From the NCBI GenBank assembly GCA_001774075.1, contig MEYR01000005.1, forward strand, positions 1 through 53,415: a stretch of DNA of 53,415 nucleotides, in the 5' to 3' direction. Positions 1 through 40,737 of the stretch are shown in pieces. Positions within the stretch are counted from its first letter, which is position 1; each line of letters starts with the position of its first letter. The stretch is from Candidatus Azambacteria bacterium RIFCSPLOWO2_01_FULL_44_84. Its GTDB lineage: Bacteria > Patescibacteriota > Minisyncoccia > UBA10092. A program made the translations under genes and the position numbers. The notes beneath the pieces are model-generated. The model was not told where the DNA came from. It saw only the letters and a program-made list of their open reading frames with translations, and searched no databases.

Positions 1-1
1 T

Positions 2-48
2 TGTGCCCACCAGGATTCGAACCTGGGACCGTCTCCTTAAAAGGGAAT
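2..48 (-). pseudogene. tRNA-Lys-like 3' fragment (anticodon arm through acceptor 3' strand), at window edge
   Basis: Minus strand reads ATTCC-CTTTTAA-GGAGA-CGGTC-CCAGG-TTCGAAT-CCTGG-TGGGCAC-A. The T-arm is intact, with compensatory changes relative to the tRNA-Lys at 69-141. No D-arm or 5' acceptor strand is in register. Confidence 0.6.
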
Positions 49-68
49 CTTTTAAATTCAGTGCTTTG

Positions 69-141
69 TGCGCCCAGAAGGATTCGAACCTTCGACCGTC
101 TCCTTAAAAGGGAGCTGCTCTACCAGCTGAGCTATGGGCGC
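69..141 (-). tRNA. tRNA-Lys (anticodon UUU)
   Basis: Minus strand GCGCCCA-TA-GCTC-AGCTGGTA-GAGC-A-GCTCC-CTTTTAA-GGAGA-CGGTC-GAAGG-TTCGAAT-CCTTC-TGGGCGC-A. Complete 73-nt cloverleaf; CCA not encoded. Confidence 0.9.
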
Positions 142-156
142 ACAAAGCACTGAATT

Positions 157-270
157 ATTTAAAAGGGAGCTGCTCATCCCCGGGTTTTATTTTACGCAAA
201 TCGAGGACGATTTGCTATAAAACCCTTAAAACACAAGCAGTTGTGTTTTAACCAGTTGAGCTATGGGCGG
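157..270 (-). pseudogene. tRNA-Lys-like 5' fragment (acceptor 5' strand, D-arm, anticodon stem and loop) with a ~73-nt hairpin insertion in the D-loop
   Basis: Minus strand CCGCCCA-TA-GCTC-AACTGG[insert]GAGC-A-GCTCC-CTTTTAA. The insert (about 176-250) folds as AAAACACAA/TTGTGTTTT and as GGGTTTTAT/ATAAAACCC enclosing GCAAATCG/CGATTTGC. Confidence 0.55.
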
Positions 271-282
271 AAGTAATTTATC

Positions 283-7753: not shown

Positions 7754-8671
7754 ATGAAAACTATATCCGAAAATAATCTAACCTGGGTTGATATAGAAAA
7801 ACCGACCCAAAAAGACATCGACTGGCTTAAAGCCAATTTCAATTTTCATCCGCTGACTCTCGGCGAACTGATCCCCCCGTCAAGGCGCGAAAAAGTCGAG
7901 CATTTCGACGACTACTTATTTTTAGTGATGTATGTGCCGGTTTTTAACGAAAAGAAACGAACCACCAACCCGGTAGAACTTGATATCCTGATAACGAAAG
8001 ACCGTATTATCACGGTCCATAACGAGCCGATTGAACCGTTGAAAGATTTTTCCCGAAAAGTTGAGAAGCCGGAGCTTAGAAATAAATATTTTTCCAAATC
8101 AACCGGCCATATTTTCTACTGGCTTTCGGAAGAACTGCTTAATTTCGGCGAGCGCCAGCTGGTTCACATCGGCAAAAATGTATTAAACATTGAGGACGGC
8201 ATTTTCAAAAATATTGAACGCGACATGATAAAAGAGGTTTCAACTATAAAAAGGGATATTTTGGACTTCAGGATCGCCGTAAGACCACTCAATCGAATCT
8301 TCAACTCCCTAGCTTCAAGAGGCATAAGATTTTGGCCGGAGCAGGGCGACGATCTTAAGATTTATTTCAACGACCTAGTCGGCGACTACGAAAGAATCTG
8401 GAGCGAAATAGACAATTACACCGATACTATCGGCGCTCTTGAGGCCACCAATACTAATCTTCTTAACGACAAAACTAACGCTATAGTCAAAACATTTACT
8501 ATTCTTTCTTTCATCACTTTCCCCGCAATGCTTGTCGCGACGATACTCCAGATTAACACGATTTATAATCCGATTCTCGGTCGCCAAAATGACTTCTGGC
8601 TCGTGGTTGGTTTTGTCGCTTTGACAGTCATGGCCATGTGGATTTATTTTAAAACTCGGAAATGGCTGTAG
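7754..8671 (+). CDS. CorA-family divalent cation transporter-like protein, GMN motif replaced by QIN
   Basis: Size, soluble N-domain and two C-terminal TM helices (FITFPAMLVATILQINTIYN ... FWLVVGFVALTVMAMWIYF) match the CorA layout. Only the Asn of YGMN is kept. Confidence 0.7.
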   Translation: MKTISENNLTWVDIEKPTQKDIDWLKANFNFHPLTLGELIPPSRREKVEHFDDYLFLVMYVPVFNEKKRTTNPVELDILITKDRIITVHNEPIEPLKDFSRKVEKPELRNKYFSKSTGHIFYWLSEELLNFGERQLVHIGKNVLNIEDGIFKNIERDMIKEVSTIKRDILDFRIAVRPLNRIFNSLASRGIRFWPEQGDDLKIYFNDLVGDYERIWSEIDNYTDTIGALEATNTNLLNDKTNAIVKTFTILSFITFPAMLVATILQINTIYNPILGRQNDFWLVVGFVALTVMAMWIYFKTRKWL

Positions 8672-15977: not shown

Positions 15978-16024
15978 TGGCGGCCCCCACGGGAATTCGA
16001 ACCCCTGTTACATGGATGAGAACC
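15978..16024 (-). pseudogene. tRNA-Glu-like 3' fragment (anticodon loop to encoded CCA)
   Basis: Minus strand GGTTCTCATCC-ATGTAAC-AGGGGTTCGAATTCCCG-TGGGGGCCGCCA resembles the bacterial tRNA-Glu 3' half. No 5' half is present and the T-stem is imperfect. Confidence 0.55.
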
Positions 16025-16031
16025 TATTATC

Positions 16032-16086
16032 TCCCGATTCTGTCTAAGTCTTCGATTTAGCAACAGAATCGAGGATCCTCGATTTC
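16032..16086 (-). repeat. hairpin element X, copy 1 (TCCCGATTyTGT ... ACArAATCGAGGATCCTCGA)
   Basis: tcccgattctgt-ctaagtcttcgatttagca-acagaatcgaggatcctcga. The paired copy at 40197-40251 has a compensating ttgt/acaa stem. Confidence 0.65.
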
Positions 16087-16101
16087 TCAACAAAATTCTA
16101 G

Positions 16102-16176
16102 TACCGCTATCGGGATTTGAACCCGAGTTTTCTGGATGAGAACCAGATGTCCTAGACCAGGCTAGACGATAGCGGC
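16102..16176 (-). tRNA. tRNA-Glu (anticodon CUC)
   Basis: Minus strand GCCGCTA-TC-GTCT-AGCCTGGTCT-AGGAC-A-TCTGG-TTCTCAT-CCAGA-AAAC-TCGGG-TTCAAAT-CCCGA-TAGCGGT-A. Confidence 0.85.
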
Positions 16177-16230
16177 ATAATATCAGAATTTTGGAGAAAT
16201 CGGGACTGGGCCTCTAGACGTTCGGGCATG

Positions 16231-16387
16231 TGGATTATCTCTCAACCCCTTTTTCTACTGCAATCTCTAAATTTTGGCTACGACTTTGTTAAAAATCCTC
16301 GCTGTATATCTATACAGTTCGAATTTTTTCCTCGTCTCGCCCAAAATTTAGAGATTTCGCAACGAAACGGGATTAAGAGATAATCCA
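16231..16387. ncRNA. nested long-range helices (unclassified structured region)
   Basis: Outer helix tggattatctctcaacccc/gggattaagagataatcca, inner helix gcaatctctaaattttgg/ccaaaatttagagatttcgc, core hairpin ctgtata-tc-tatacag. The two outer mismatches are C-A on the plus strand but G-U on the minus strand. Confidence 0.45.
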
Positions 16388-16434
16388 AGCTTCGCTTATT
16401 ATGGCATAGAACCGCGACTTTGTAAACTACAAAT

Positions 16435-16599
16435 GGAAGCGAATATAATATCTTTTCCCGAAACCTTCCGAGCAGGCGGGCTTGGCGGTTTTTGATATAA
16501 TAATAAGCTCATCAAAAACCCCGCCGTAGCGAGGACAAGCGAAGGCCATCGCTGGAATGGCCGGAGCGAGTTGAGGGAAGAGATATTATATTCGCTCCC
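16435..16599 (+). ncRNA. structured ~165-nt element, copy A (homolog of 13296-13456 on the opposite strand)
   Basis: 25-bp closing stem GGAAGCGAATATAATATCTTTTCCC/GGGAAGAGATATTATATTCGCTCCC, with internal hairpins GGCGG..TTTTTGAT/ATCAAAAA..CCGCC and GGCCAT-CGCTGGA-ATGGCC. Confidence 0.6.
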
Positions 16600-16618
16600 A
16601 CTCTTTCACATTATTTCC

Positions 16619-16775
16619 ACCAGGAAGTAGAAATTCGACAAATTCATTTTTGTCCTTAAAATTCTTTATTAATATTCATCCAATATATTTTATGTATAGC
16701 GAGTACTGCAGCATCAATCTAGAAAAACCGGACAAAAAGAATTTTTAAGGACGAGTCGAATTTTCACTTCCTGGT
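16619..16775. repeat. long imperfect inverted repeat spanning the murF stop
   Basis: accaggaagtagaaattcgac...gtccttaaaattc pairs with gaatttttaaggac..gtcgaattttcacttcctggt. The right arm contains the last murF codons. Confidence 0.55.
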
Positions 16776-21648: not shown

Positions 21649-21887
21649 ATTCCTTAATAATAATATGAATAAAATAAGCTTGCAAGAGCTTAAATGTGGA
21701 TAAGTCAGGAAGTGAAAATTGGACCCGCACTTCAAGTTCTTTTGCCCGACGATTCAATGTTTTAGTTCTATAACTTCTGAAACATAATGAAGAGCGTATT
21801 TTGCTATAATAAAGAATTCGAAGGGCAAAAAAGAATTTGTCCAATTTCTACTTCCTGATAAACTTAAAAAACCCCGTAATTACGGGG

Positions 21888-30920: not shown

Positions 30921-30972
30921 TGGGCATTGCAGGTATCGAACCTGCGGCCTATCGCCGTCGGCGACCGCTCTA
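30921..30972 (-). pseudogene. tRNA-like 3' fragment (D-stem 3' strand to acceptor end) with a collapsed anticodon loop
   Basis: Minus strand TAGAGC-G-GTCGCC-GAC-GGCGAT-AGGCC-GCAGG-TTCGATA-CCTGC-AATGCCC-A lies 3 nt after tRNA-Val. No 5' acceptor strand is present. Confidence 0.5.
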
Positions 30973-40475: not shown

Positions 40476-40737
40476 AGCCAACGGCCGGATTTGAACCGGC
40501 GACCTACTCCTTCGCTTTAACTCTCCCAGAAAGTCACGGCAAGAGAGGACCAGACTGTATCTTGAGCATGCCTTAAAAAAGGCGAAGCTCCCCTTGTCAG
40601 TCGTTCGGGCGCCGAAAGCGCCACGGTCTTAGCCCCGTGAAGCCTTTAACCGTTATTCGGGATTCACTAAAAAATTTCTTCTTTAATGGGCAGATTTTTC
40701 CACCATGGAGTTGCTCTACCAGCTGAGCTACGTTGGC
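40476..40737 (-). tRNA. tRNA-Thr (anticodon GGU) interrupted by a 189-nt group I intron after position 36
   Basis: Exons join to GCCAACG-TA-GCTC-AGCTGGTA-GAGC-A-ACTCC-ATGGTAA-GGAGT-AGGTC-GCCGG-TTCAAAT-CCGGC-CGTTGGC-T. The 5' exon ends in U and the intron ends in G. Confidence 0.85.
40513..40701 (-). ncRNA. group I intron in the tRNA-Thr anticodon loop
   Basis: P7 is GACTG/CAGTC with J8/7 AAGATA (CTCAAGATACAGTCTGGTCC, compare the Tetrahymena core AAGATATAGTCGGACC). The P2 hairpin TTAAAGAAGAAATTTTTTAGTG resembles the cyanobacterial tRNA-Leu intron. P8 is GAGCTTCGCC/GGCATGCTC, followed by a P9 hairpin and a terminal G. Confidence 0.8.

Follow-up and report, generated by a model that had tools for sequence, protein, structure and literature searches.

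Transfer RNA (tRNA) genes are usually seen as passive landing pads for mobile elements, which must restore the function of the gene that they enter. The analysis presented here concerns a locus at the start of a 53,415-nt stretch of DNA from a Candidatus Azambacteria genome (contig MEYR01000005.1; the whole stretch is hereafter called the window), in which a complete tRNA-Lys(UUU) gene, enclosed by a long inverted repeat that extends its acceptor stem (the clamp), lies between the two halves of a second, broken tRNA-Lys gene. The arrangement is termed here a nest, and its two genes the inner and the outer gene. Tyrosine-integrase elements (phages and genomic islands) likewise insert inside tRNA genes, keep the gene functional through tRNA sequence borne on the insert and leave the displaced 3' half as a direct repeat with a short exact core; in the nest, however, the insert is only 112 nt long, contains a whole tRNA instead of a 3' part and encodes nothing else, the 5' half is displaced too, the bounds are inverted repeats, and no allele contains an integrase. 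Group I introns of bacterial tRNA genes occupy the same position, the anticodon loop, and this genome probably has one in a tRNA-Thr gene (40476-40737), whereas the 112-nt insert lacks a ribozyme core and rescue would be by gene replacement instead of splicing. In archaea, split and multi-intron tRNA genes, such as the split tRNAs of Nanoarchaeum and the transposed introns of Thermoproteales (PMC10714607, PMC4090602), show halves parted at the anticodon loop, a long bridging helix and insertions in the D, anticodon and T loops, several of which may fall in one gene. The nest differs from these in its bacterial host, in the absence of a bulge-helix-bulge motif, in an intervening sequence that is a full tRNA, and in a split gene that is mutated and most likely non-functional.

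Free-standing GIY-YIG homing endonucleases of tRNA gene clusters, such as SegB of phage T4 (PMC2330249), also make tRNA genes targets of mobile DNA, and in one relative (L002; related loci are designated by such numbers throughout) the resident tRNA-Lys is interrupted by hairpins and a GIY-YIG gene; no endonuclease gene, however, lies in or near the window cassette, and the L002 insert is at another position and of unrelated sequence. Repetitive extragenic palindromic (REP) sequences and bacterial interspersed mosaic elements (BIME), Correia elements, Rickettsia palindromic elements and foldback miniature inverted-repeat transposable elements (MITEs) place hairpin-forming, non-coding inserts within genes, and the genome studied here likewise has multi-copy foldback elements and a shared hairpin motif; those families, in contrast, are multi-copy with conserved ends and no cargo, whereas each clamp described below is unique and encloses a presumably functional tRNA. 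The leader-trailer helices of ribosomal RNA operons, which are cut by RNase III, resemble the clamp as long, perfect flank helices enclosing a structured RNA to be released, but the clamp surrounds just one tRNA, relatives do not conserve it, and it has the look of a by-product of insertion more than of an evolved signal. Insertions of the snap-back or templated kind, like quasipalindrome template switching, yield, as here, a perfect inverted copy of a flank that is flush with a short inverted repeat (in this case the acceptor stem), unique in sequence to each event and without consistent target duplication. We know of no description of snap-back insertion as a route by which bacteria acquire a whole functional gene. 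Literature searches, including searches for disrupted and intron-containing tRNAs of candidate phyla radiation (CPR) bacteria, recovered no published account of a tRNA nested in a tRNA in bacteria. Nesting is apparently an undescribed, recurrent way of replacing tRNA genes, and there is a substantial chance that, within the broader class of mobile DNA in tRNA genes with functional compensation, it constitutes a distinct process.

An intact tRNA-Lys gene lies inside a broken one

The Lys nest lies within positions 1-275 of the window on the minus strand. Read along that strand, the outer 5' half (270-159) is followed by three unpaired bases, a 15-nt arm, the inner tRNA-Lys, the complementary arm, TTAAAAG and the outer 3' half:

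159-270, minus strand: 5' half of the outer tRNA-Lys, with acceptor strand CCGCCCA (264-270), D-arm, 5' strand of the anticodon stem and anticodon loop CTTTTAA (159-165); broken by the D-loop insert
176-250, minus strand: D-loop insert of the outer gene, 75 nt, with two hairpins in the minimum free energy and centroid folds and one perfect 11-bp stem
142-156, minus strand: clamp arm upstream of the inner tRNA, AATTCAGTGCTTTGT in tRNA sense, a gapless continuation of the acceptor stem
69-141, minus strand: inner, intact tRNA-Lys(UUU), presumed functional, with acceptor stem GCGCCCA/TGGGCGC and T-arm GAAGG/CCTTC; CCA not encoded
55-68, minus strand: clamp arm downstream of the inner tRNA, CAAAGCACTGAATT in tRNA sense, following the discriminator A (69), which pairs with 142
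49-55, minus strand: TTAAAAG, reverse complement of the outer anticodon loop CTTTTAA (159-165), so that the helix runs into sequence of the resident gene
2-48, minus strand: 3' half of the outer tRNA-Lys, with a pseudo anticodon arm ATTCC-CTTTTAA-GGAGA (32-48), variable loop, T-arm CCAGG/CCTGG (10-26), acceptor strand TGGGCAC (3-9) and discriminator (2)

The inner gene was called as tRNA-Lys(ttt) by ARAGORN (68-141, minus strand) and identified as a tRNA by Rfam over 69-141 (RF00005, model positions 1-71) at 71.8 bits against a gathering score of 29, in agreement with the initial annotation, a reading of the sequence alone that had posited an intact tRNA-Lys within a perfect clamp. The clamp was likewise recovered as proposed: 55-76 and 135-156 are complementary at 22 of 22 positions, the acceptor stem being thereby lengthened to 22 bp, and the six further pairs claimed beyond a bulge can be read in the sequence and appear in the centroid fold, where CTTTTA (49-54) pairs with TAAAAG (160-165) across a 3-nt bulge (157-159). 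The flank inverted repeat scores z = 9.2 against shuffled sequences, and in the fold of the whole 275-nt RNA (z = -8.1) one tRNA is contained within another.

That the flanking sequences are halves of another tRNA-Lys is borne out by direct repeats with the inner gene: 2-46 repeats 69-113 at 89% identity, 159-175 equals 104-120 (17/17) and 251-269 matches 122-140 (18/19). Once its inserts are removed, the outer gene folds as tRNA-Lys(ttt) with the perfect T-arm (CCAGG/TTCGAAT/CCTGG) and the 5 of 7 acceptor pairs that had been described for it, positions 1-72 (C-C) and 2-71 (C-A) being mismatched. Carrying two interruptions of 75 nt and 112 nt, it was called neither by ARAGORN nor by the Rfam gathering search; a partial tRNA match was recorded at 10-57 (18.6 bits). 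The outer tRNA-Lys is most likely dead, as judged from its sequence, because of the two acceptor mismatches and the 75-nt double hairpin in its D-loop. This D-loop insert, also noted in the initial annotation, resembles a secondary insertion of small palindromic elements. A motif in its second hairpin (TCCTCGATTT, about 197-206) resembles by eye one arm of the tRNA-Glu clamp described below, a resemblance not recovered by motif scan or BLAST. The cassette itself comprises 112 nt (47-158), 73 nt of which are tRNA, between two copies of a 10-nt direct repeat (TCCCTTTTAA in tRNA sense, at 37-46 and 159-168), both of which lie within the longer repeats with the inner gene.

The 300-nt locus is identical (300/300) in 10 assemblies (L001, L100 and L109-L116) deposited at ENA, JGI and NCBI and drawn from at least 8 samples, so the clamp is not peculiar to one chimeric assembly, as the initial annotation had cautioned it might be. 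The nest is internal in contigs of 120 kb and 156 kb, short contigs from other runs confirm each junction on its own (L089 the left, L092 the right), and the same downstream arm and spacer are present in L092, L097 and L100. L097 is a probable metagenome chimera, parts of which resemble three different genomes and in which tRNA positions 7-66 mismatch; it shows the inner tRNA, the downstream arm and the outer 3' half without the outer 5' half, and it was used for the outer 3' allele only. That allele, TAGGCGG, would pair at 6 of 7 positions with the outer 5' strand.

In metagenome contigs, all matches carrying the Lys clamp arm are at this same locus. Elsewhere in the window the clamp 15-mer has no occurrence with fewer than 3 mismatches, and thus none of the multiple copies expected of a MITE; its 83 matches in viral contigs are single, at chance level and never beside a tRNA. 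The exact inner Lys and inner Glu sequences are absent from viral contigs, which lends no support to a phage origin. Rfam searches over positions 1-1500 returned nothing but tRNA, with no match to the group I intron family RF00028 at E up to 10. A six-frame motif scan detected GIY-YIG endonucleases in L002 and L004 only and none in the window, and the cassette is too short for an open reading frame (ORF).

Orthologous loci point to insertion of a foreign gene into a resident one

The nest is preceded by ORF172 (283-801), encoding a 172-aa membrane protein without a Pfam family. In L003 and L004, whose ORF172 is 63% identical, a single, plain, uninterrupted tRNA-Lys(UUU) follows ORF172, with a T-arm of the inner type in L003 and of the outer type in L004; the insertion of a hairpin-flanked tRNA cassette into another tRNA gene, posited in the initial annotation, thus has empty-site counterparts. 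Tandem tRNA-Lys genes, whose decay had been considered as the alternative, are absent from the relatives compared, which have single tRNA-Lys genes. The inner gene of the window is 92% identical to the resident tRNA-Lys of L003 and 89% identical to its own outer gene, from which its T-stem differs by compensatory changes, as had also been pointed out. These comparisons establish, at the level of sequence, that a tRNA gene was inserted, that the inner gene is of foreign origin and not a copy of the outer gene, and that the outer gene has decayed.

Closer relatives carry other insertions at the same place. L002 (ORF172 91% identical) has the same outer 5' end (CCGCCCATAG) after ORF172, interrupted after G10, first by two GC-rich hairpins and then by the beginning of a GIY-YIG nuclease gene (Pfam, 30.8 bits), where the contig stops (6176-6355). 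L090 (ORF172 88% identical) has a second, different Lys nest, in which an intact tRNA-Lys of a third sequence type is enclosed by an 18-19-bp inverted repeat of unrelated sequence. The L090 inner tRNA sits in the D-loop of a host gene that equals the window inner gene from G10 on, the exceptions being 4 inserted nucleotides and a single substitution in the region of the D-stem; this host gene has lost its 5' acceptor strand and carries inserts in the D, anticodon and T loops. The gene that is apparently alive in the window is thus a predicted dead shell in L090, a serial, Russian-doll pattern.

Nesting recurs at a tRNA-Glu gene of the window and at other tRNA genes

A second nest of the window (15978-16228, minus strand) holds an intact tRNA-Glu(CTC) inside a decayed tRNA-Glu(CTC):

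16206-16228, minus strand: decayed resident 5' part of tRNA-Glu(CTC), TGCCCGAACGTCTAGAGGCCCAG, aligning to GGCCCTATCGTCTAGAGGCCCAG of L107/L108
16185-16205, minus strand: upstream clamp arm, TCCCGATTTCTCCAAAATTCT, pairing with 16076-16099 (AGAATTTTGTTGAGAAATCGAGGA); helix seen in the fold
16102-16176, minus strand: inner, intact tRNA-Glu(CTC) (ARAGORN; Rfam, 60.1 bits)
15978-16075, minus strand: extra hairpin (16031-16075), seen in the fold, then the decayed resident 3' part (15978-16024)

The flank inverted repeat is imperfect here (21-24 nt, z = 6.4). L107 and L108, whose MurF is 85-86% identical, have a single intact tRNA-Glu(CTC) right after murF and constitute a clean empty site. Their gene is the ortholog of the outer remains, which align to it with several substitutions and one extra G, whereas the inner gene of the window is only 69% identical to the L107 resident type. 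The 7 nt that come next in L107 (GACGCAT) are missing from the window, a 7-nt deletion at this nest. Another assembly of the same population (L104) has three single-nucleotide polymorphisms in the Glu region, all of them outside the inner gene and clamp, a hint that the outer parts vary neutrally while the inner gene does not. L105 and L106 were excluded as likely chimeras, because within a foldback element they pass into foreign, GC-rich sequence.

A fourth nest (L095 4520-4700, identical to L098) was located on a Parcubacteria contig from the same aquifer, where a 12-15-bp repeat clamps a tRNA-Arg(TCG) and, but for a slip of 2 nt (GC), is flush with its acceptor stem. The clamped tRNA sits in the D-loop of a tRNA-like gene of ambiguous identity, whose anticodon loop can be read as 6 or 8 nt, and tRNA-Lys(CTT) comes next. 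The nesting therefore recurs, in four independent instances (the Lys and Glu nests of the window, the L090 Lys nest and the L095/L098 Arg nest), each with a different inverted repeat. Inner and outer anticodons are identical in all three nests in which both can be read. Of the ~35 distinct tRNA genes contained in the loci retrieved, only the four inner genes, each enclosed by a broken tRNA, exceed z = 6 for a flank repeat. Pairing between leader and trailer as a general property of the tRNAs of this genome was rejected, as the Val, Trp, Tyr and Thr genes show none.

The repeat is flush with the acceptor stem in two of the four nests (Lys and Arg), while 8+3 and 16+8 unpaired nucleotides separate tRNA and repeat in the Glu and L090 nests. 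Six of eight insertions into outer genes fall in cloverleaf loops (binomial p ~0.03, assuming that loops make up 37% of tRNA length). A shared insertion target was rejected: no two of the eight insertion points are preceded by the same dinucleotide, which speaks against a target of the IS200/IS605 type. The initial annotation had suggested that the insertion duplicated its target. A 10-nt repeat does bracket the Lys cassette; the other three nests (Glu, L090 and L095) show no duplication, the first of them having the 7-nt deletion instead, so that a duplication of the kind made by a transposase is not established.

Genomic surroundings and other insertions

Genes around the Lys nest encode ORF172, DnaJ, a class II aminoacyl-tRNA synthetase, two small ORFs to which no family could be assigned and, in some strains but not in others, an rve-type insertion sequence (IS) transposase. 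The nearby genes hrcA-grpE-dnaK-dnaJ, and closest named DnaK proteins from Parcubacteria/Azambacteria, identify the host as an Azambacteria-like CPR bacterium of the Parcubacteria from groundwater, and on the same grounds an archaeal origin was rejected. The window starts at the nest because in most strains an IS element adjoins the outer 3' end directly beyond position 1. This element encodes an rve-type DDE transposase of 319-325 aa, has 18-bp terminal inverted repeats (GGCAGGCACATATGGCGG) and was located as follows:

L001 14155-15162: IS element after the outer tRNA-Lys 3' end
L110/L111 3909-4900: the same element
L109 and L092: element absent

The nest is kept identical with or without the neighbouring element, and in strains free of it a terminator-like hairpin and a T-run come right after the outer 3' half.

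Between murF and the Glu nest lie three consecutive foldback elements of about 160 nt (16231-16387, 16434-16600 and 16619-16775), absent from L107 and reminiscent of MITE-like palindromes. The last codons of murF have been replaced by the third, of which a second copy, 90% similar, lies at 21705-21860. Hairpin stems that begin with C[C/T]CGAT and end with ATCG[G/A]G were found in the window (40199-41 and 16033-16114), in L090 (1523-1563) and in L002 (6211-6243); they recur in intergenic DNA, in inserts of dead tRNAs and in the Glu clamp, and may represent a REP-like family of this lineage.

Several other tRNA genes are interrupted or accompanied by inserts. A tRNA-Thr(GGU) gene upstream of rpmG (40476-40737, minus strand), missed by both tRNA finders, has an interruption of ~189 nt (40513-40701) after the anticodon; the insert begins after U, ends in G and gives a weak full-length group I match in Rfam (14.8 bits, E = 0.23), and it is probably a small group I intron in a thrT-like gene. 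An orphan tRNA 3' fragment (30921-30949, minus strand), 27 nt downstream of tRNA-Val(CAC), retains a perfect T-arm (GCAGG/CCTGC) and the acceptor strand AATGCCC, with neither a matching 5' half nor an inverted repeat present. Directly downstream of tRNA-Gln(CTG) in L004, a small gene of the GIY-YIG type (7882-8310; Pfam, E = 4e-19) is flanked by structured, GC-rich sequence. Two metagenome contigs (L091 8582-8669 and L094 187-272) hold one tRNA-Lys(UUU) with a variable region of ~19 nt and another tRNA with a small extra D-loop hairpin, called Ser(aga) by ARAGORN and having by eye the anticodon loop of Lys(CUU).

Origin and expression of the nests

The reading that we favour, and consider probable though by no means certain, is that the Lys locus results from xenologous gene replacement: the resident gene received a foreign tRNA of matching anticodon and then decayed, and the clamp is probably a fold-back scar. 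The outer tRNA-Lys would be the remnant of the original gene after ORF172, its anticodon loop having been entered by a promoter-less 112-nt cassette that consisted of a tRNA-Lys(UUU) from a related Parcubacteria lineage and two short inverted flanks. The inner gene would then have taken over the function, leaving the outer halves free to drift and to gather small palindromic inserts.

We attribute the clamp, with moderate confidence, to fold-back synthesis. A single-stranded or broken donor fragment ending at the 3' acceptor strand of the tRNA would fold back on its own acceptor stem, its folded 3' end would be extended along the 5' flank, giving a perfect inverted repeat flush with the stem, and the resulting hairpin would be joined into a break in the highly transcribed resident gene. 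Signatures consistent with this origin are the uniqueness of each clamp, the flush repeats of the Lys and Arg nests and, in the Lys nest, the extension of the downstream arm by a reverse-complement copy of CTTTTAA, the resident loop that lies ahead of the upstream arm.

Being promoter-less, the incoming tRNA would be expressed only when landing in a transcribed unit, here presumably from the resident upstream signals and up to the resident terminator-like hairpin past the outer 3' half. The identity of inner and outer anticodons is most simply understood as a survival filter: only same-anticodon insertions would persist, because the organism probably has one gene per isoacceptor. The inner tRNA would then have to be released from a helix of 22-29 bp. 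Leader pairing that extends the acceptor stem is described as inhibiting bacterial RNase P (PMC9433436), and the leader-trailer helix, with 22 perfect pairs and 6-7 more beyond the bulge, reaches the ~20 bp of uninterrupted double-stranded RNA looked for in an RNase III processing helix; for both reasons the helix is probably cut first, most plausibly by RNase III, and a double-strand cut followed by RNase P would be the most economical route, with 3' trimming and CCA addition to complete it. The processing substrate offered as an alternative in the initial annotation is compatible with gene replacement, because the inner tRNA must still be cut from the long helix.

Several observations weigh against this account. 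Fold-back synthesis predicts a flush repeat, and the gaps in the Glu and L090 nests would require later indels or priming from minimal microhomology. The Glu clamp shares the motif YCCYCGAT...ATCGRG with free-standing hairpins in this genome and in L090, which fits pre-existing palindromic elements better than de novo synthesis, and multi-copy foldback elements of about 160 nt adjoin the same nest. At the Lys nest, a transposase or recombinase may have left the 10-nt repeat as its footprint. The searches found no donor locus with its native flank, and the relatives that supply the empty Lys sites are rather distant (ORF172 identity of 63%), whereas L002 and L090, as the nearest sisters, carry other insertions and not an empty site. 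Outer-gene death and the RNase III step, finally, are predictions from sequence. The broader proposition that tRNA-in-tRNA nesting is a general, undescribed route of tRNA turnover in CPR bacteria, combining the self-primed capture of promoter-less foreign tRNAs, as fold-back hairpins, within a transcribed gene for their own isoacceptor, the takeover of its expression signals, a series of dead shells and an RNase III-type maturation step, is put forward tentatively, as an idea somewhat short of probable.

Alternative explanations

The main rival, which we regard as unlikely, is a non-autonomous, MITE-like foldback transposon with tRNA cargo, in which the repeat is the transposase end, the 10-nt (or a 3-nt TCC) repeat the duplication, and the transposase is encoded elsewhere. 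Inverted repeats do bound the cassettes in all four nests, a direct repeat brackets that of the Lys nest, the Glu clamp motif is common to other hairpins, and the genome has its own foldback elements of about 160 nt, absent from L107 and in one family two-copy. The repeat is nevertheless different and single-copy in every cassette, duplication is wanting in the Glu, L090 and L095 nests (with a deletion in the first), and independent transposon ends would not be expected to lie flush with an acceptor stem, as they do in two nests; random hits on tRNA genes would, moreover, seldom land in their own isoacceptor.

Improbable, in our judgement, is a scar of site-specific integration, left by a tyrosine-integrase element that used an anticodon-loop core, brought tRNA sequence with it and was afterwards mostly deleted, with attL/attR-like repeats remaining. 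The outer 3' half opens with a complete, imperfect anticodon arm (ATTCC-CTTTTAA-GGAGA), as an attR would; in the scheme of tRNA integration sublocations of Williams (2002), the attR of an anticodon-loop integrase reportedly has this appearance. Also in accord are the direct repeat of 45 nt that the tRNA 3' half forms, with its 10-nt exact core, and the tRNA 3' fragment after tRNA-Val (30921-30949). Yet Pfam searches found no integrase near the nest in any allele, only 112 nt separate the cores, and the additional outer 5' half and the inverted repeat are left unexplained. The outer 3' strand pairs with the outer 5' strand and not with the inner one, and the other nests lie in D-loops and have no direct repeats.

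A functional outer gene is a far more remote prospect. By analogy with split tRNAs, RNase P and RNase Z would excise the inner tRNA in the manner of an 'intron', and the clamp would hold the halves together for religation; it would indeed keep them paired once the inner tRNA had been removed. The fold of the whole RNA as a tRNA within a tRNA, the concentration of insertions in cloverleaf loops and the tolerance of an intron in another tRNA of this genome are in line with such a scheme. The organism, however, is a bacterium, and the Lys junctions have no bulge-helix-bulge motif, defined as two 3-nt bulges on opposite strands 4 bp apart: a single 3-nt bulge (157-159), on one strand, adjoins the 22-bp helix. 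The outer Lys gene is mismatched twice at the top of its acceptor stem, the outer Glu gene is heavily mutated, the L090 outer gene lacks a 5' acceptor strand, and a helix left in the anticodon loop would block decoding.

Hardly more credible is a tandem duplication of tRNA-Lys, followed by deletions and decay, with the inverted repeat arising later. Quasipalindrome template switching at an acceptor stem can yield a perfect flush repeat and could have supplied this one, and the 89% identity of inner and outer genes would suit a duplication. No relative, however, has tandem tRNA-Lys genes, two deletions would both need to end in the anticodon loop, the same architecture is found in a Glu pair only 69% identical whose sister genomes have a single gene, and the inner allele matches the resident allele of other lineages.

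An assembly chimera or inverted-duplication artefact at the contig end, which the location at the window start and the breakage of assemblies by tRNA repeats might suggest (L089 ends, and L092 starts, inside the inner tRNA), is refuted by the identity of the locus across assemblies made with different assemblers and by its internal position in long contigs, the contig end being accounted for by the adjacent IS element.

Implications

In these bacteria a whole replacement gene has been delivered into the old one, repeatedly, in tiny genomes with probably one gene per isoacceptor. The shells and clamps left behind can mislead tRNA finders and break assemblies, as illustrated by a window that ends at a nest and by two contigs that break inside the inner tRNA, and a tRNA held in a 22-bp helix is a natural test case for RNase P facing a paired leader. 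If nesting is a general route, clamps would force an RNase III-type step into tRNA maturation; and if the clamps are fold-back scars, they would provide a readable footprint of the uptake of foreign DNA by these DNA-scavenging bacteria.

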